A DNA stretch of 64,000 nt from Felixounavirus LF110P2: sequence record OZ035782.1, one strand, 5' to 3'. The translations under genes and the position numbers were made by a program. A model generated the notes under the pieces. The model saw nothing but the letters and a program-made list of their open reading frames with translations, was not told the origin of the DNA and ran no database searches. Positions 5,002 through 60,751 of this stretch are shown here, piece after piece (the first letter of the stretch is position 1; each line of letters starts with the position of its first letter).

Positions 5002-6105
5002 TTATTCGTAGTCTCGAATAACTAACCCGACAGGGAACTGTAGAGACCCCTTACGAGTCATCTTCTGGAACTGAACCGTTAAAGGCTTCCCGATAAACTC
5101 TTCAGGATGCTCAGCAAGATACTGTTTCTTCTCATGAGTAGTCTTCCATGAGACATCTACAAAGACGTTAGGAAGAGTCTCTACAACGAACTTGCCATGA
5201 CCACGCTTATCAGTCTTTACACCAGTCACTTTAAACTCTTCAGTGTGCATCTTCTTGTGCTTAATCAAGAAATATGAACGGTGACCACACTCGTAGAAAG
5301 ATTCTTCAGAGATTGAACGGTACATTGCACCTTCAAAATCAGCTTCAACCCATTTATCATGAGCTTCATCAAACTCTTCCCAAGAGTTAACACGACGAGA
5401 CTTGACAGGGACAACTCTACAGCCGTCTCTAAAGTCATTCAATGGTGAAGTCTCAATAATATCCCTACGCTCAGGCCACGTCTTAGTGCTGTCACAGATA
5501 TCATACCAGTAAAACTTGAGTAAATGTCGGTCAGGATTGTCTTCATTTTTAATCATAGAGACAATATCTTCTAAGTCCAACCCATGAGCATAGATTTCAC
5601 CATCAAATTCATCAACATCTTTATGGAGCCTCAACATTGCCATAATGTCAGGTATTAGCTCAGTAGGAATTTTATAAATAGTGTTCTCACGAGAATATGC
5701 TGTAAATACGCTGCCAATACTTAAGTGTCTTGAAATTCTACAACGGACACCATCAAGTTTTGGTTGAGCATCAGCAGGGAACTTCAGATACTTTGCATGA
5801 CTAACCTTTGCAGCATCATGAGCAAGCTGCACACCTACCTTCTCAGTATTCTGTGCAGACTCTTTTGTGTAAGCATAGCCTTTGCGGTCAACCTGCTTTT
5901 TATACTTAGCAGCAACTTCAAAGAGAGCTTGCTGTTCAGCGTTACGCTCATTCTTTTTACCGATGTTTTTAGGTTCTGCTGTATACTCTTCAAACATCAT
6001 CTTGCCATTTTCTTTACCGTAGGTTGTAATAACTTTGTCACCTACAGCAACGCATGACCAGACGTTGAAAGAGCCGTCTTTATTTTGTTTGTACAGTATT
6101 GTCAT
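5002..6105 (-). CDS. ATP-dependent DNA ligase
   Basis: KxDG adenylation motif (PKLDGVRC); start moved from track 6141 to Met at 6105, which abuts the upstream stop. Confidence 0.8.
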   Translation of the reverse strand: MTILYKQNKDGSFNVWSCVAVGDKVITTYGKENGKMMFEEYTAEPKNIGKKNERNAEQQALFEVAAKYKKQVDRKGYAYTKESAQNTEKVGVQLAHDAAKVSHAKYLKFPADAQPKLDGVRCRISRHLSIGSVFTAYSRENTIYKIPTELIPDIMAMLRLHKDVDEFDGEIYAHGLDLEDIVSMIKNEDNPDRHLLKFYWYDICDSTKTWPERRDIIETSPLNDFRDGCRVVPVKSRRVNSWEEFDEAHDKWVEADFEGAMYRSISEESFYECGHRSYFLIKHKKMHTEEFKVTGVKTDKRGHGKFVVETLPNVFVDVSWKTTHEKKQYLAEHPEEFIGKPLTVQFQKMTRKGSLQFPVGLVIRDYE

Positions 6106-22295: not shown

Positions 22296-22350
22296 TTTTA
22301 ACAACTATGAGGGTCGTAAAAGACCCTCTAAAAATAACTTTGGAGAGACC

Positions 22351-22608
22351 ATGAAAGATTTAATAGAAAAACATGAGCGACCTATATACTTGCTCCACAA
22401 GCCTCGGAAAACGATGTACTATGTGAGTAGCACAGATATGATGATAAAACAAAAGGATGACTCATGGGTTGCTGGTATCTCTTACATCTCTACAGCAGAT
22501 GGTAAAACCTACGCAAGACCTTATGAGATGTTCAACAAAGAAAATTGGGAAGTTTTAGACAGAAAACAAGCCTTAGAAATGATAAAGAAAGGAGAAATCA
22601 CGCTATGA
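22351..22608 (+). CDS. hypothetical protein
   Basis: ORF between nrdA and nrdB; start moved to ATG 22351 after GGAGAG. Confidence 0.4.
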   Translation: MKDLIEKHERPIYLLHKPRKTMYYVSSTDMMIKQKDDSWVAGISYISTADGKTYARPYEMFNKENWEVLDRKQALEMIKKGEITL

Positions 22609-23920: not shown

Positions 23921-24119
23921 ACGCATTTGGGAAGGTTTTGTTGTTGATGCACCAGCTATTGTGATTGGTATGCTTATTGTTAACCTATTTACTGACTTTG
24001 AACAAGGTTCATTGTTTGGAGCCATGTTACTATGGGTTATCTTCGAAATATTAGAGATACAGTTAGGTATCACTGAAAAACTAAGAGAACTCTTTGCGAA
24101 GTTTTCTAAAAAGATTTAA
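23913..24119 (+). CDS. hypothetical small membrane protein
   Basis: 68 aa, hydrophobic. Confidence 0.4.
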   Translation: MLKRIWEGFVVDAPAIVIGMLIVNLFTDFEQGSLFGAMLLWVIFEILEIQLGITEKLRELFAKFSKKI

Positions 24120-24123
24120 AATG

Positions 24124-24147
24124 AAAGGGTCTCTTCGGAGACCTTTT
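24124..24147 (+). terminator. rho-independent terminator
   Basis: GGTCTC-TTCG-GAGACC hairpin plus TTTTT. Confidence 0.55.
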
Positions 24148-24167
24148 TAGCATGTAAAGGGGCAATA

Positions 24168-26312
24168 ATGAACAAAGTACAGATTATTAAAAAGAATGGC
24201 TCACTTGAAGAACCTGATATCAAAAAAGTTTTAGCAGCAGTCACAAAGTCAGCTAACAGAGTTGGTTATAAAGAGCTTCCACCAGATGTTACTCAAGCTC
24301 TTGAGTCAGCATTTATGAGGATTCTGGTAAAGTCCACTAAGCAGAATAATTTGCTAATTTCGGTAAATGATATTCACAGTATTGTTGAGGGTGCTTTGGC
24401 AGAAGTCAATCACGAGATTTATGAGTCTTACTCAACATATAGAAATTACCGTAAAGAGGTTGCTCAAAATTGGGATGAACTCTACCAGAAGACCAAAGAT
24501 ACACTCTTCTTAGGCGACCGAGAAAACGCTAATTTTGACAGCAGTTTAATTTCTACAAAAGGCTCAATTATTCGTGGTTACCTGACTAAAGAAATCTTTA
24601 AACAGTACCATTTAACACCAGAGGAACTTGAAGCCATTGAAAAAGGATTTATCTATATCCATGATTTAAGAGACCTAATTTTTGGTGGTATCAACTGTTG
24701 CCTGTTTGACATTGGTAAAGTCCTGAAAGGTGGCTTTGAAATGTCTGGCATCGAATATTGTGAACCGAAGTCTGTGCTGTCAGCCTTACAGGTTATTGGT
24801 GATGTAGTTCTTTCAGCAACTGCACAGCAATTTGGTGGCTTTACTTTAGCAGAGATTGATAAGGTACTTGTACCGTATGCTAAGAAGTCTCTACGCTATC
24901 ATGCTGAGAAAGCAGCATCTTATGGTATTCCTAAAGAACATTACCATAATTATGTCATGGAGCAGCTACAGATTGAATTAACTCAAGGTTTTCAGTCACT
25001 TGAAATGAAACTGAACACTGTACCTTGCAGCCGTGGTGATTTCGCATTCACAACTTTAACATTCGGGTTACTTGACTCAGATATGTCTAATGAAGACAAC
25101 CGACTACAATACATGATTGCAAGTACTCTCCTAGATGTTCGTATGAATGGACAAGGTAAGAGCAAGAAGCCTGTTGTATTCCCTAAACTGGTTTATATTC
25201 ATGACCAGAAGAGACACGATGAGAATATCTGTCAAGGTCAACTGTACAGTAAAGCTATTGAGTGTTGCTCTAAAGCGATGTATCCAGATTTCTTAAGCGT
25301 ATCTGGTCATGGTGCTGTAGCAGAAGCTTTTGAGCGTTCTGGCAAGGTAATTTCACCGATGGGTTGCAGAGCTTTCTTATCCCCATATCTTAACGAGAAT
25401 GGAGAAGAGTTCTACGTTGGACGTGCTAACATTGGTGCTGTATCTTTGAACTTGCCAATGATTTACCAGTATTCTAAAGAGAATGGTTTAGATTTCTGGA
25501 AAGAGCTTGATAAGTACCTAGAGATGATTCGCAGCTTCCACAAGAAACGCTACGAAATGATTGCTAATATGCCAGCAAGTTCTAACCCTCTTGCATTCAC
25601 ACAAGGTGGTCTGTACAAAGGGACTAAGAAACCTACTGACAAGGTTGGTTGGGATATCGTGAAGTCCTTCACAGCTTCTTTTGGGGTTACTGCTCTTGAT
25701 GAGCTGTCTGTTCTTGCTGAAGGTAAACGACTTCATGAAGTTGGAAGCTATAGTTTTGCATACGATGTTCTGGCATACATTAACATGAAAACTGAAGAGT
25801 TTAAGAACGAAGATGGCTTCTTGTATGCGGTATATGGCACTCCAGCAGAATCACTTTGTGGAACTCAGTTAAAACAGTTCAGAGATATGTTTGGCGTTAT
25901 TAAAGGTGTCTCTGACAAGGAATATTTTACAAACAGTTTCCATATGAATGTTGCAGCAGATATCTCACCATTTGAGAAGCAGGACTTAGAAGAGCCATTC
26001 TTCCATATCTGTAGAGGCGGCAGAATCCAGTATGTGAGGGTAGCTAACCCAGAAAACTTACCAGCACTTAAAAGTTGTATTACAAGAGGGATGTTGAAGG
26101 GTTTTTATCAAGGACTTAACTTTGACTTAGCAATCTGTGAACATTGTGGTAACAGACCAAAGGCTGATGTTGAAGAATGTGAGGTTTGTCATTCACACGA
26201 TATCTCTGTGATTAACAGGGTGTGCGGGTACTTGTCATTCACAAAAATTAAAGGTCAGTCTCGAATGAATGACGCTAAGATGGCAGAAATTAAGGATAGG
26301 GTTTCTATGTAG
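24168..26312 (+). CDS. nrdD: anaerobic ribonucleoside-triphosphate reductase
   Basis: N-terminal ATP-cone, C-terminal zinc ribbon CEHCG...CEVC and glycyl-radical motif RVCGYLS. Confidence 0.85.
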   Translation: MNKVQIIKKNGSLEEPDIKKVLAAVTKSANRVGYKELPPDVTQALESAFMRILVKSTKQNNLLISVNDIHSIVEGALAEVNHEIYESYSTYRNYRKEVAQNWDELYQKTKDTLFLGDRENANFDSSLISTKGSIIRGYLTKEIFKQYHLTPEELEAIEKGFIYIHDLRDLIFGGINCCLFDIGKVLKGGFEMSGIEYCEPKSVLSALQVIGDVVLSATAQQFGGFTLAEIDKVLVPYAKKSLRYHAEKAASYGIPKEHYHNYVMEQLQIELTQGFQSLEMKLNTVPCSRGDFAFTTLTFGLLDSDMSNEDNRLQYMIASTLLDVRMNGQGKSKKPVVFPKLVYIHDQKRHDENICQGQLYSKAIECCSKAMYPDFLSVSGHGAVAEAFERSGKVISPMGCRAFLSPYLNENGEEFYVGRANIGAVSLNLPMIYQYSKENGLDFWKELDKYLEMIRSFHKKRYEMIANMPASSNPLAFTQGGLYKGTKKPTDKVGWDIVKSFTASFGVTALDELSVLAEGKRLHEVGSYSFAYDVLAYINMKTEEFKNEDGFLYAVYGTPAESLCGTQLKQFRDMFGVIKGVSDKEYFTNSFHMNVAADISPFEKQDLEEPFFHICRGGRIQYVRVANPENLPALKSCITRGMLKGFYQGLNFDLAICEHCGNRPKADVEECEVCHSHDISVINRVCGYLSFTKIKGQSRMNDAKMAEIKDRVSM

Positions 26313-56699: not shown

Positions 56700-58115
56700 A
56701 TGAGCGAATTATTTAAACATGCGCACCTTCATGCAGGTCGAACTGAAAATGGTGCTGTAAACCATACTTCATCAATGTCTGCTCTTGTAGACTTTTACAA
56801 AGCTGCTGGTTCGAGCCGTAGCAATGTAGAAATCTTACCAGACCTGTTCTACAAAGCTTTGCGTGAGGATGTTGATGTTGCAGTTCGTATTTTGCTTCAC
56901 ATGCGAGATGTACGAGAAGGTATGGGTGAGCGTAAAGCCTTCAGAACTGTTTTGCTTCAAGCAATTGAAGATAAAGTTTTAGAGCCTACACAGGTTCTTC
57001 GCATTATGGATAAGATTGCAGAACTTGGTCGTTTTGATGACTTCAAAGTCTTCGTAGGTACTCGTTTCGAGACAGATGCCTTCAAACATTTAGAAGCAGC
57101 ATTACTAGACCCTGCAACAGCAGGTTTGGCAGCTAAGTGGTTACCACGAGTCAAACCACGTCATAAGCAGTTTGTAAAACGTTTCTGCAAGTTTGCCAAC
57201 TTGAGTGAGAAAGAGTACCGCACACTGTTGTCTGCACTATCTGATACAGTTGAGCAAAAAATCTCTGCTAATGAGTTTGGTAAGATTGACTACAGTAAGA
57301 TTCCTTCACTTGCTGCTGCACGTTACCAAAAACTGTTTAACCGTAAAGATGGAGAACGCTACAAAGCTTACATCGAGTCCTTATCAAAGGGTGAGACTAA
57401 GATTAATGCTGGTGCTGTTTACCCATACGATGTAATTAAATCTGTTAAGCATGGTAATGCAGATGTTGCTAATGAGCAGTGGAAAGCACTACCAAACTGG
57501 ATGGCAGAGGGTGAAAACATCTTGTGTATGTCTGATGTTTCAAGCTCAATGTCTTGGGTGAATTTTGGTTCAATTACTGCTCTTGATATTGGTGTTTCAC
57601 TTGCATTGTATGTAGCAGAACGTAATACAGGTTGCTTTAAGAATGAGTTGATGGTTTATTCAACAAACCCTCACTTCATCGAACTGAGTGGTGATTTACG
57701 AAACCGTCATCGTCAGGTGATGCGACACGTTGAATATGGCTCAACTAACTTACAAGCTGCTTTTGACCGTATTCTTGAGACAGGTAAAAGAAACAACTTG
57801 ACTCAGAAAGATATGCCAAGTAAGCTTATCATCTTCTCCGATATGGAGTTCAATCAGGTTGATGGAGCTAACGGTCGTACAAACTTTGAAGCAATTCAGA
57901 GTAAGTACAAAAAAGCTGGATACGAAATGCCACAACTGGTATTCTGGTACTTAGCAAACCGTAATGGCACTTGCGAAGTGTCTGTTAAGGATAACGGTGT
58001 AGCAATGGTATCAGGGTTCTCTCCAGCCACTTTAAAAGCTCTGCTTGGTGGTGAGAAGTTTGACCCAATCAGTGTAATGCTCAAAGCAGTAATGATTGAC
58101 CGTTATATCTGGTAA
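56700..58115 (+). CDS. vWA-domain protein (MIDAS motif); possible Ro60/TROVE-like protein
   Basis: C-terminal vWA signature: DVSSSMSW (DxSxS), GSTNLQAAFDRIL, IIFSDMEF; N-terminal 270 aa unassigned; Ro60-like call is inference from domain order and the adjacent tRNA-like RNAs. Confidence 0.5.
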   Translation: MSELFKHAHLHAGRTENGAVNHTSSMSALVDFYKAAGSSRSNVEILPDLFYKALREDVDVAVRILLHMRDVREGMGERKAFRTVLLQAIEDKVLEPTQVLRIMDKIAELGRFDDFKVFVGTRFETDAFKHLEAALLDPATAGLAAKWLPRVKPRHKQFVKRFCKFANLSEKEYRTLLSALSDTVEQKISANEFGKIDYSKIPSLAAARYQKLFNRKDGERYKAYIESLSKGETKINAGAVYPYDVIKSVKHGNADVANEQWKALPNWMAEGENILCMSDVSSSMSWVNFGSITALDIGVSLALYVAERNTGCFKNELMVYSTNPHFIELSGDLRNRHRQVMRHVEYGSTNLQAAFDRILETGKRNNLTQKDMPSKLIIFSDMEFNQVDGANGRTNFEAIQSKYKKAGYEMPQLVFWYLANRNGTCEVSVKDNGVAMVSGFSPATLKALLGGEKFDPISVMLKAVMIDRYIW

Positions 58116-58130: not shown

Positions 58131-58165
58131 GTATTGACAATGTGTTTAATACCCTTTAATATGTT
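58131..58165 (+). promoter_or_regulatory. candidate sigma70 promoter upstream of the tRNA array
   Basis: TTGACA (58134-58139), 17-nt spacer, TAATAT; -35 sits inside a GGGTATT..AATACCC hairpin. Confidence 0.45.
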
Positions 58166-58280
58166 CTACATAGAAGCGAAATGAGAGCTTTTCTAAGATA
58201 CTGAAAAATATTTTAAAAAAGTTCTTGACAACCACTAAAAAATAATGTTAAAGTGGTTACATAGAGTTTGAAAAGTTTAT

Positions 58281-58442: not shown

Positions 58443-58448
58443 GTTTTG

Positions 58449-58522
58449 ACAGAAGACCAATTACAGCAAACTTAATCTTATTCATCTGAAGGTAAATCGG
58501 ACAAAGAAGAGATTTGGTCTGG
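58449..58522 (+). ncRNA. conserved stem-closed element, copy A (candidate small RNA)
   Basis: ACAGAAGACCAATTACAGCAAA...TTGGTCTGG; 7-bp closing stem AGACCAA/TTGGTCT. Confidence 0.4.
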
Positions 58523-58533
58523 TCATTAAGAAT

Positions 58534-58610: not shown

Positions 58611-58615
58611 AATTT

Positions 58616-58680
58616 ACAGAAGACCGTTTACAGCAATATTTATTAAATTTTTAGCGGAAAAATTGAAAGATACGGTCTGG
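58616..58680 (+). ncRNA. conserved stem-closed element, copy B
   Basis: ACAGAAGACCGTTTACAGCAA...ACGGTCTGG; closing stem AGACCGT/ACGGTCT (compensatory change relative to copy A). Confidence 0.4.
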
Positions 58681-58693
58681 TAATACTAAACAT

Positions 58694-59010: not shown

Positions 59011-59071
59011 ATTTTGAGAGGGCTATTTAGCCCCTCCCTTAAAGGGTTCTTACGAGTATCCTTTAAAGGAG

Positions 59072-59148
59072 CAGAAGACCAAATACAGCAAGAATGTATG
59101 ATATTTTCAAGCCAATTCAATTTTGAAAAAATTTAAAACTTGGTCTGG
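59072..59148 (+). ncRNA. conserved stem-closed element, copy C
   Basis: GCAGAAGACCAAATACAGCAAG...TTGGTCTGG; closing stem AGACCAA/TTGGTCT. Confidence 0.4.
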
Positions 59149-59161
59149 CTCAAAAAATTTA

Positions 59162-59293
59162 CAGAAGACCGTTTACAGCAAAACTTAAACAATCTATTTC
59201 TCCGGTAAAGAAAAGGCGAAGGTTCGATTCCTTCACTCGGCAGATGTCGAGTTGGTGTAATGGTAGCACTTAAGATGATAAACAACGGTCTGG
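59162..59293 (+). ncRNA. conserved stem-closed element, copy D, enclosing a circularly permuted tRNA-like domain (YrlA/Y-RNA-like candidate)
   Basis: Closing stem AGACCGT (59166-59172)/ACGGTCT (59285-59291); inside, in order: T-arm GAAGG-TTCGATT-CCTTC (59218-59234), ACTCGGC (59235-59241), loop AGAT, GTCGAGT (59246-59252, pairs with ACTCGGC), D-arm GTGT-AATGGTA-GCAC (59255-59269). Confidence 0.45.
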
Positions 59294-59298
59294 TAATT

Positions 59299-59434
59299 AT
59301 CTTTGTAGATAAGTTATTAAGCTTACCTGTGAGTATGCGACCACAAAGGGTGAAAGGGTAAATTCTAGATTTAAACCCAAAAAGGCACATCGCTACAGAC
59401 CTTAAGCAAGTCTGGGTAGCTTATCTACAAAGAT
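59299..59434 (+). ncRNA. structured element closed by a perfect 15-bp inverted repeat (candidate small RNA)
   Basis: ATCTTTGTAGATAAG (59299-59313) pairs with CTTATCTACAAAGAT (59420-59434); encloses 106 nt with internal hairpins. Confidence 0.35.
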
Positions 59435-59442
59435 AATTTAAT

Positions 59443-59518
59443 GGAAGTGTAGCAGAATGGTGATGCGGCAGACTTTTAATCTGACAGGCGATGGGTTCGA
59501 ATCCCTCCACTTCTACCA
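59443..59518 (+). tRNA. tRNA-Lys (anticodon UUU)
   Basis: Acceptor GGAAGTG/CACTTCT, loop CTTTTAA, T-loop GGTTCGAATCC, CCA encoded. Confidence 0.6.
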
Positions 59519-59721: not shown

Positions 59722-60014
59722 AACTAAAATACTTCATAATATGTATAATTCAAACACCAATACATGAGCGTTAGACGTAACACAATGTGGGGAAATTTGT
59801 TGTACATATTCTGAATAGTTTTCGTTGCGTAGCGTCTATTTTGCAAATTTAAAATAAATGCAAACGACAATGTTTTTCTGGCAGTAGCTTGATAGGCTAA
59901 ACACCAGTGAGGTCTTCCAATCCCTCATCAAAGAATTTGGCGTACTCGCCCACGGTATGATTAATAAGGTGGGCATCTTTAAGGGCTTTCTAAGAGAGTC
60001 TTTAAAGATTAATG

Positions 60015-60232: not shown

Positions 60233-60315
60233 GTGGGACGATGTTAAGACTCTAAGGCATGAGCAACGGCCTCCAAAACCGTTTCAAAGGGGTTCAACTC
60301 CTCCGTCCCATGCCA
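60233..60315 (+). tRNA. tRNA-like gene, Trp-type anticodon CCA, non-canonical (7 extra nt between acceptor and D-arm)
   Basis: 3' part canonical (loop CTCCAAA, 5-nt variable, T-loop TTCAACT, acceptor GTCCCAT+G+CCA), but the pairing 5' strand GTGGGAC lies 7 nt further upstream than a standard cloverleaf allows. Confidence 0.4.
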
Positions 60316-60328
60316 AAGTCTTATTAGG

Positions 60329-60416: not shown

Positions 60417-60673
60417 CCTAATAAGATTTAAAGCCAAGCTTCATTCGGATGTTGCTTTGGTATACCGCGTGTATTGTTGTACGCACTGATAAAGCACCTA
60501 GTAGGTGTCACGGAGAAGAGATAATATCAAGCTCTCCAAAGGTTCTAGTCACCGGATTAAACAAGACTATGCAAAGACCTTTTTAGGTCTTTTTAGAGGG
60601 CTTCTAAGGTTATTACAGCTTGTTGTGGAACCTTGTTGCTTAGGTTCTTAGAAGTTCTCTAAAAAGATTTAAT

Positions 60674-60751
60674 GGGAGATTGATGGTAATTGGTAAACCT
60701 ATCTCGCTTAGAACGAGATGTTTGAGGGTTCGAATCCCTTGTCTCCTACCA
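60674..60751 (+). tRNA. tRNA with Leu-type anticodon UAG, short variable arm
   Basis: Anticodon stem-loop ATCTCG-CTTAGAA-CGAGAT, T-arm GAGGGTTCGAATCCCTT, acceptor GGGAGAT/GTCTCCT, A73, CCA; variable region only 4 nt. Confidence 0.5.

Follow-up and report, generated by a model that had tools for sequence, protein, structure and literature searches.

Known Y RNAs are encoded within about 4 kilobases (kb) of a Ro60 gene, on the same strand, and have a terminal stem that joins their 5' and 3' ends (PMC4201824, PMC12135203). In the YrlA-type bacterial Y RNAs, a T arm, an acceptor stem-loop and a D arm follow one another in this order (PMC4201824). A 2024 preprint reported that gp130 of phage Bas63 resembles Ro60 and counters the Ppl defence, and its authors guessed that 'some tRNA genes are possibly Y RNAs', referring to the transfer RNA (tRNA) genes downstream of gp130 (PMC11482910). 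Phage T4 carries two further small RNAs that invite comparison, species 1 (rnaC) and species 2 (rnaD), which are non-tRNA molecules of 119-139 nucleotides (nt), flanked by tRNAs, co-transcribed with them and of unknown function. Here we describe an element at positions 59295-59438 of a 64,000-nt stretch of Felixounavirus LF110P2 (sequence record OZ035782.1; the whole stretch is called the window below), a conserved non-coding RNA fold of about 145 nt that is closed by an inverted repeat and lies on the plus strand of the tRNA cluster.

The element resembles the Y RNAs with which we compared it (YrlA and YrlB of Salmonella and Mycobacterium, and Yrl1 and Yrl2 of Thermus phage phiLo) in lying on the same strand as, and 1.18 kb downstream of, a Ro60-type gene, the product of which is a DUF2828/DUF7788 look-alike of Ro60 and not a Pfam TROVE protein. 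Like them, it has a structured interior enclosed by a long stem of its paired 5' and 3' ends, adjoins a second, tRNA-mimicking RNA with T arm, acceptor stem-loop and D arm, and belongs to a size class of about 100-150 nt (PMC4201824, PMC12135203). It differs from them in its conserved signature, which is an AGCAA-type loop. Because a Ro60-like gene lies upstream and a YrlA-like unit stands next to it, Y RNAs, and not the T4 species RNAs, appear to be the closest known kind. The T4 analogy had been drawn in the first-pass annotation, a description of this stretch made from the sequence alone; it is apt for the position within a tRNA cluster and fails for the fold. T4 rnaC has a T arm, absent from the element, and an acceptor-like closing stem, rnaD folds no better than shuffled sequence (z = -0.8), and neither has a 20-base-pair (bp) terminal stem or any sequence or structural homology to the element. 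Common descent with rnaC and rnaD was rejected on these differences in fold and because searches of the phage collection with the element gave matches in the Felix O1-like group only.

A conserved RNA fold upstream of tRNA-Lys

The first-pass annotation had reported an exact 15-bp inverted repeat, and its arms, ATCTTTGTAGATAAG (59299-59313) and CTTATCTACAAAGAT (59420-59434), are indeed exact reverse complements. They are enclosed in a longer perfect repeat of 19 bp (arms 59295-59313 and 59420-59438), and as RNA, with G·U pairs included, 59295-59318 and 59415-59438 form a helix of 24 consecutive pairs in the minimum-energy fold. Within the window there is no other perfect inverted repeat of at least 15 bp with arms no more than 200 nt apart, and such repeats arose in 4 of 200 first-order Markov randomisations of the window (mean 0.02). 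Against dinucleotide shuffles, the plus-strand fold of the element (-43.6 kcal/mol) has z = -5.4 and the minus-strand fold z = -3.7. The location given earlier, between a permuted tRNA-like unit (59159-59296) and tRNA-Lys(UUU), is correct, and the element of Salmonella phage Felix O1 is identical in sequence. The parts of the fold and the adjoining tRNA are these:

59295-59318, plus strand: 5' strand of the terminal stem P1, AAUUAUCUUUGUAGAUAAGUUAUU (exact repeat, minimum-energy fold, covariation)
59319-59325, plus strand: junction J1/2, in which GCUUA at 59321-59325 is a candidate pseudoknot strand for the P4 loop
59326-59349, plus strand: hairpin P2, CCU-GUG / CAC-AA-AGG, with loop AGUAUGCGAC at 59332-59341 (minimum-energy fold)
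59356-59378, plus strand: hairpin P3, GGGU (59356-59359) / ACCC (59375-59378) (minimum-energy fold)
59396-59414, plus strand: hairpin P4, CAGAC (59396-59400) / GUCUG (59410-59414), with loop CUUAAGCAA (59401-59409)
59415-59438, plus strand: 3' strand of P1, ending 4 nt upstream of tRNA-Lys (fold, exact repeat, covariation)
59443-59518, plus strand: tRNA-Lys(UUU) (ARAGORN and Rfam)

Three hairpins thus occupy an interior of about 96 nt. Among the internal hairpins proposed earlier, GGGU/ACCC stands as described, and the one given as CAGACC/GTCTGG is in fact CAGAC/GUCUG with a 9-nt loop. P2 is the weakest helix of the element, and the loop of P3 contains the conserved AUUCUAGAUU (59362-59371), with the palindromic core UCUAGA.

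Versions of the element stand between the permuted tRNA-like unit and tRNA-Lys(UUU) in about 250 phage genomes, and fall into two sequence types (A and B) in Felixounavirus, Mooglevirus and Suspvirus. Across 22 distinct sequences, aligned by fitting to the model, pairing reaches 99.6% over the 22 modelled pairs of P1, with compensatory changes at 8 positions, and 100% over the 5 pairs of P4, with compensatory changes at 2; when the partners were slid by 1-3 columns as a control, pairing fell to 30-46%. RNAalifold likewise finds that the stem and the 3' hairpin keep their pairing through compensatory and G·U changes, and on the plus strand only. Many pairs of type B are G·U, which leaves mismatches between its arms in the DNA and in the opposite strand, and a covariance model of the element scores 145 bits on the plus strand versus 37 bits on the minus strand. 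Since G·U pairs function on the plus strand only, the feature belongs to the RNA of that strand. The structured RNA with a long terminal stem and internal stem-loops that had been proposed from the letters is therefore borne out by covariation, by the strand preference of the model and by distant relatives that keep the architecture.

The inner hairpins vary in their stems under more constant loops. The 10-mer in the P3 loop is invariant in types A and B, and in type B the P3 stem changes from AUUUCCU/AGGAAAU to GUCUCUU/AAGAGAC, with three compensatory pairs and the loop 10-mer unchanged; in type C the P3 loop is a perfect palindrome, AUACUAGUAU. By eye, the P2 loop motif GAGUA(U/G)GC is shared by types A, C and E, with a variant form in B and F, above stems that differ (GUG/CAC in A, GGGG/CCCC in C). 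The P4 stems across types are CAGAC, CAGACC, CAAACC, CAGUC, AAAGUC, CUGUUC and AGAGAC, and they carry the loop C[UC]U[AU]AGCAA, or CCUAUGCAA in type F. In types A to E, a Watson-Crick complement of at least 5 nt to the P4 loop occurs outside P1 at a single site, nt 22-28 of the element, directly behind the 5' strand of P1, the pairings by type being GCUUA with UAAGC, GCUAA with UUAGC, UUGCUUA with UAAGCAA, and UUGCUU with AAGCAA; in type F the complement is located elsewhere. One of these pairs covaries between U-A and A-U in seven of seven representative sequences, and 18 of 500 shuffles match the observed score. A pseudoknot between the P4 loop and GCUUA after the 5' strand of P1 is likely, judged from this complementarity.

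Beyond Felixounavirus, Mooglevirus and Suspvirus, a search by DNA similarity returned tRNAs only. As DNA similarity runs out beyond the enterobacterial genera, distant relatives were reached through the neighbouring protein instead. Four distant phages (L083 to L086; protein identity 54-63%) have the same gene order of DUF5681, DUF2828 and tRNA cluster, and in each of them a long-stem element ends 0-7 nt upstream of tRNA-Lys(UUU), a spacing that holds in all six sequence types:

6280-6421 of L083: element of type C (covariance model 56.8 bits, E 5e-11)
7495-7656 of L085: element of type D
about 7247-7401 of L084: element of type E (covariance model 18.5 bits, E 0.1)
about 7015-7158 of L086: element of type F

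The stems of types D, E and F are unrelated in sequence, similar in length and in the same place; in the types other than that of the window the equivalent of P1 has 21-24 bp, with bulges in D, E and F. In L084 the outer stem of the element resembles the 5' strand of that phage's own YrlA-like unit, CAGCA included. No second copy of the element was found in the 64-kb window, no match in E. coli genomes and plasmids, and none in the phage collection outside the Felix O1-like group.

Salmonella phage SP116 (L033, about 5543-5640) carries a natural deletion with one end in the T arm of the YrlA-like unit and the other in that of tRNA-Lys(UUU); half of the YrlA-like unit, the entire element and most of tRNA-Lys are gone, and the Ro60-like gene is retained. 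Erwinia phage phiEa21-4 is the only examined member of the subfamily, Ounavirinae, without the DUF2828 gene; it is also without the element, and its tRNA cluster is without ACAGCAA.

The Ro60-like gene, the permuted tRNA-like unit and a shared motif

The protein gene upstream of the element and the RNA units that lie between the two are the following:

56700-58115, plus strand: gene for a 471-amino-acid Ro60-like protein with DUF2828 and DUF7788, orthologue of Bas63 gp130 (Pfam, PHROGs, model)
58447-58525, plus strand: 'stem + UACAGCAA' unit among the tRNAs (repeat family)
58614-58683, plus strand: 'stem + UACAGCAA' unit among the tRNAs (repeat family)
59069-59151, plus strand: 'stem + UACAGCAA' unit among the tRNAs (repeat family)
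59159-59296, plus strand: 'unit 4', a permuted tRNA mimic and the upstream neighbour of the element (fold)

The protein belongs to PHROG 850 ('RNA-binding protein'), and its AlphaFold2 model (pLDDT 88.9) carries a DxSxS metal-site motif at residues 279-283. The best 11 Foldseek matches in the PDB are all of Ro60 type (Ro60, TROVE, Deinococcus Rsr and the Ro60 of Thermus phage phiLo), with E from 2e-8 to 3e-6 and TM 0.47-0.65 over the full length, and the protein models as a Ro60/TROVE plus vWA ring fold; a Pfam search gave no TROVE match.

Unit 4 comprises, in order, an outer stem, internal loop and stem with UACAGCAA, a variable hairpin, a T arm, an acceptor-like stem-loop and a D arm. Its anticodon stem is opened into a long stem and its acceptor stem-loop is closed, and as modelled it has the topology of a YrlA-type Y RNA. 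The acceptor stem-loop covaries, being ACUCGGC/GUCGAGU in Felix and ACACG/CGUGU in SUSP and Sf18, and in the equivalent unit of L084 a CCA is encoded after the acceptor 3' strand. All four units share an outer helix, an AGA/G internal loop, an AGACC-NNN helix and UACAGCAA, in the pattern 'CAGAAGACC-NNN-UACAGCAA ... NNN-GGUCUGG' with covarying helices. By eye, the outer helices vary as UGAC/GUCA, UUAC/GUAA and GAGC/GCUC, and the inner ones as ACCAAU/AUUUGGU and ACCGUU/AACGGU.

The motif of these units recurs next to related protein genes. In the tRNA cluster of the window ACAGCAA occurs four times on the plus strand and never on the minus strand. At 75 diverse IMG/VR loci (L094-L168), which encode protein relatives of about 40% identity, the flanks of the DUF2828 genes hold 100 copies on the gene strand versus 27 on the other, with about 26 expected, an enrichment of about four-fold on the gene strand. 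L087, a phage of 143 kb with little else in common, carries an array of stem + UACAGCAA units behind its DUF2828 gene, and three consecutive ones contain permuted tRNA-like domains. The UACAGCAA motif can itself form a hairpin loop, as it does in L087 at 5620 and in L156 at 4606. The extended consensus is an AG-helix of 6-8 bp, one or two bases, UACAGCAA, a variable insert, and a helix 3' strand that ends in CU and is followed by G. From these sequence comparisons, the AG-helix with UACAGCAA ... CU-G looks like an RNA motif that has so far gone undescribed and that goes with the DUF2828 protein family.

Hairpin P4 of the element looks like a minimal variant of this 'stem + UACAGCAA' module. 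Its helix lies in an AG...CU frame, like that of the UACAGCAA motif found with the Ro60-like gene family, the motif stands directly 3' of the 5' strand of the helix, and it ends in AGCAA. Unlike the units, P4 has the loop UU(A/U)AGCAA, which is one base shorter than UUACAGCAA, its helix has 5-6 bp instead of 7-8, and it is embedded within a larger fold.

Searches among described RNAs gave no name to the element. In the Rfam scan that had been suggested as a check of the small-RNA claim, no Rfam 15 family overlaps 59295-59438 at gathering scores or at E up to 5, and literature searches on this RNA and on Felixounavirus transcripts or small RNAs found no description. Several further candidates were tried and rejected. 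For unit 4 and the element together, the core positions of hammerhead and kink-turn (box C/D-like) RNAs do not fit by eye; for a two-piece reading of the transfer-messenger RNA (tmRNA) kind, ARAGORN returns no tmRNA, and types A and B share no conserved tag frame. Pairing of the P3 loop with the anticodon arm of tRNA-Lys involves 5-6 nt only and is inconsistent among types. The sole nearby GGCGAAG, considered as a canonical Ro60 motif, lies within the T stem of unit 4, and SUSP1 does not conserve it.

Possible function and competing explanations

Our favoured reading, which we hold tentatively, is that the element is an independently folding RNA of about 145 nt in a polycistronic tRNA transcript, with a 3' end set by RNase P, that serves as a Y-RNA-like partner of the gp130 homologue. 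A processed stable RNA with its 3' end made by RNase P is the best reading of the layout; the Y-RNA-like partnership is probable at most and is the least certain step, put forward from context and motif resemblance. P1 (22-24 bp) clamps both ends, with P2, P3 and P4 inside, and the P4 loop can pair with GCUUA. General tRNA biology suggests that RNase P would cut at the 5' end of tRNA-Lys(UUU) (59442/59443), and this predicted cleavage would set the 3' end of the RNA 0-4 nt past P1. The 5' end would be freed from the upstream Y-like unit by another nuclease, either RNase III acting on the two-turn P1, which the length of the helix suggests it may cut, or RNase E. This would yield a compact RNA whose two ends are paired, in which the Ro60-like protein could recognise P4 as an AG...CU helix with an AGCAA loop, leaving P1, P2 and P3 as possible surfaces for a second factor or for dimerisation.

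This reading draws support from the Ro60-like fold of the upstream protein, from the YrlA topology of the neighbouring unit, from the features that P4 shares with the gene-linked motif, and from phiEa21-4, in which the protein gene, the element and the motif are all missing together. A number of observations tell against it. The canonical Ro60 motif (GNCGAAN0-1G, or CGAA in a bulged helix near the 5' end) has no counterpart, there being no CGAA in 59295-59438; GCCGAAG is seen only in Sf18-type (type B) variants, inside P2/P3, and P1 of the window is uninterrupted. Neither ARAGORN nor the Rfam tRNA model finds a T or D arm, and thus a tRNA-like domain of the YrlA class, in the element, which, lacking both CGAA and such a domain, is Y-RNA-like in architecture and context and not a demonstrated Y RNA. 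At the 75 distant loci UACAGCAA alone is enriched near the DUF2828 gene, and the P4-type loops (UUAAGCAA and relatives) show no such excess. gp130 alone, transferred to T7 or carried on a plasmid, counters Ppl (PMC11482910), so the anti-Ppl activity needs no phage RNA. The loss of the element along with tRNA-Lys(UUU) in SP116 implies that it is dispensable for propagation, and its linkage is far tighter to tRNA-Lys(UUU) than to the Ro60-like gene. Finally, the pseudoknot has a single covarying pair behind it, with alternative local partners in types B and D, and the covariation comes from few lineages and from the fitted alignment.

The main rival is that the element is a cis-acting processing or insulating module for tRNA-Lys(UUU), in which RNase III would cut the precursor at P1 and so separate the upstream Y-like RNAs from the tRNAs that follow, the module would control access of RNase P to tRNA-Lys, and the interior would have no role in trans. 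We consider this explanation rather doubtful, though it has substance. P1, at 22-24 bp, is about as long as E. coli RNase III requires, and the stem abuts the 5' end of the tRNA in all six types. The 24 consecutive pairs also surpass the roughly 20 nearly uninterrupted bp expected of an RNase III stem, cleavage by that enzyme being a prediction. Like the RNase III stems of the T7 early region and of the 16S and 23S ribosomal RNAs, P1 spans at least two helical turns and is made of the sequences on either side of an RNA that would be excised from a polycistronic precursor; unlike them, it encloses a small RNA with conserved loops and a likely pseudoknot, and abuts a predicted RNase P site. A simpler hairpin with a similar stem lies directly upstream of tRNA-Leu(UAG), its version in L083 sharing the UCUUUGUAGAU core with P1, and the joint loss of element and tRNA-Lys in SP116 also fits a cis role. 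Yet a module of this kind needs no 100-nt interior with conserved loops (AUUCUAGAUU, GAGUAKGC, UUWAGCAA), covarying inner helices and a pseudoknot, the tRNA-Leu hairpin shows that a bare stem suffices for whatever that hairpin does, and most tRNAs of the cluster stand only 1-8 nt apart without any such structure.

A trans-acting RNA unrelated to gp130 is an unlikely alternative. It might sequester a host RNA-binding protein or a nuclease as a decoy or sponge, for example one of a tRNA-Lys-targeting defence, or might base-pair or dimerise through its loops. Conserved single-stranded loops are typical of interaction sites; the palindromic core of the P3 loop is kept as the sequence changes (UCUAGA in A and B, AUACUAGUAU in C), so that loop-loop dimers would be possible, and the loop UUGCUUA of the tRNA-Leu hairpin (60575-60676) is complementary to the P4 loop UAAGCAA. 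A known role of phage tRNA-Lys(UUU) in countering tRNA-targeting defences (PMC11464382, PMC10264068) would suit it as well. Against it, no target was found, and E. coli genomes and plasmids gave no match; types D, E and F have no palindromic P3 loop, and the reading leaves unexplained both the co-occurrence with the Ro60-like gene and the likeness of P4 to the gene-linked motif. The arms could also, in principle, be a DNA-level feature, such as the terminal inverted repeats of a miniature inverted-repeat transposable element (MITE), a protein-binding palindrome, or a recombination or homing site: a perfect 19-bp terminal repeat on either side of about 100 bp is what a MITE looks like, and the tRNA cluster is a hot spot of homing-endonuclease insertions. 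This idea we rejected as essentially excluded, given a single copy per genome with none other in the window, no target-site duplication (the repeat merely continues into AATT on both sides), and arms that in type B and more distant types are complementary only with G·U and are mismatched as DNA. Nor does any relative have a precise empty site, the sole loss being the T-arm to T-arm deletion of SP116, tRNA-Lys included.

Beyond the favoured reading of the element as a processed, Y-RNA-like partner of the gp130 homologue lies a bolder proposal, which we regard as improbable as a whole: that a DUF2828-type Ro60 look-alike and its own family of partner RNAs make up an undescribed ribonucleoprotein system in Felix O1-like and many unrelated phages. 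Its RNAs would be recognised through a module of 'AG-helix + (U)ACAGCAA/AGCAA' instead of the canonical CGAA, and the element (59295-59438) would be a specialised member that binds the protein by P4. The pseudoknot that masks the P4 loop, with the long P1, might gate this binding or bring in a further factor, for example RNase III. If true, the proposal would link the Ro60-like protein to the maturation or protection of the anti-defence tRNA-Lys(UUU).

The surrounding tRNA cluster and what the element means

Further features of the cluster and of related clusters were recorded as follows:

58134-58254, plus strand: two sigma-70-like promoters, with TTGACA at 58134 and 58225 (consensus scan only)
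59693: next strong promoter-like site
about 59816-60013, plus strand: non-coding stretch of about 200 nt between that site and tRNA-Arg
60235-60312, plus strand: tRNA-like sequence missed by ARAGORN
60316-60328 and 60417-60429: 13-nt inverted repeat flanking tRNA-Ser(UGA)
60575-60676, plus strand: hairpin of about 26 bp directly upstream of tRNA-Leu(UAG)
22311-22487 of phiEa21-4 (L080): long-stem RNA (z = -4.2)
5844-6023 of L084: long-stem RNA
5647-5838 of L085: long-stem RNA
5800-5995 of L086: long-stem RNA

The promoters at 58134-58254 are predicted from sequence to drive a transcript that would run from tRNA-Pro through tRNA-Ile. The hairpin at tRNA-Leu has z = -6.2 and a small interior; its stem, GGUCUUUUUAGAG / CUCUAAAAAGAUU (60583-60672: UCUUUUUAGAG / CUCUAAAAAGA), closely resembles P1, and the equivalent hairpin of L083 has the same UCUUUGUAGAU stem core as P1. 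The long-stem RNAs of related clusters have arms of 13-27 nt with 134-151 nt between them and lie, for example, in the interval from the Ro60-like gene to tRNA-Pro. The stretch at about 59816-60013 is conserved in phiEa21-4 (about 24088-24290; local alignment score 127 versus a shuffle maximum of 28), has weak matches to tmRNA families (RF00023, 15.9 bits, E 0.0023; permuted tmRNA, E 0.45), and may be another structured RNA. The tRNA-like sequence at 60235-60312 combines an acceptor stem of 7 bp (UGGGACG/CGUCCCA) and a T arm with a possible CCA (Trp) anticodon; it encodes its 3' CCA, its D region is aberrantly long, and its sole Rfam match is a weak one to tRNA-Sec at 23 bits. The repeat around tRNA-Ser(UGA) lengthens the acceptor stem, as it does in L083 and L085.

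The cluster also varies among phages through inserted open reading frames (ORFs) of the homing-endonuclease type (L001 1739-2317; L004 1-241; L082 46630-49516). Felix O1 (L001) has about 500 extra bp between tRNA-Lys and tRNA-Ile, an HNH gene replaces upstream tRNAs in CRP22 (L004), and nrdD of Bas63 is annotated as split by an endonuclease-containing insert. At the element itself, public annotations are blank or show small ORFs on the opposite strand (ORF94 of Felix O1 and bas63_0138 of Bas63); the 85-amino-acid minus-strand ORF of the window is Felix O1 'ORF94' and spans the tRNA-like unit. A coding role of the element was rejected, as it holds only short, non-conserved ORFs.

Recognition of the element as a conserved structured RNA removes these spurious ORFs and adds a new RNA family to phages that are well used in therapy and typing. 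The Ro60-likeness of gp130 was already known (PMC11482910); what is new are the candidate RNAs and the UACAGCAA motif, which tracks the DUF2828 protein family across diverse phages. The YrlA-like permuted tRNA, the three stem + UACAGCAA units and the element itself are concrete Y RNA candidates, and the question of which RNAs are used by a phage Ro60-like anti-defence protein is now directly testable. Should the element prove to be a mere processing module, it would still be a clear case of a phage maturation layout for a defence-evasion tRNA.

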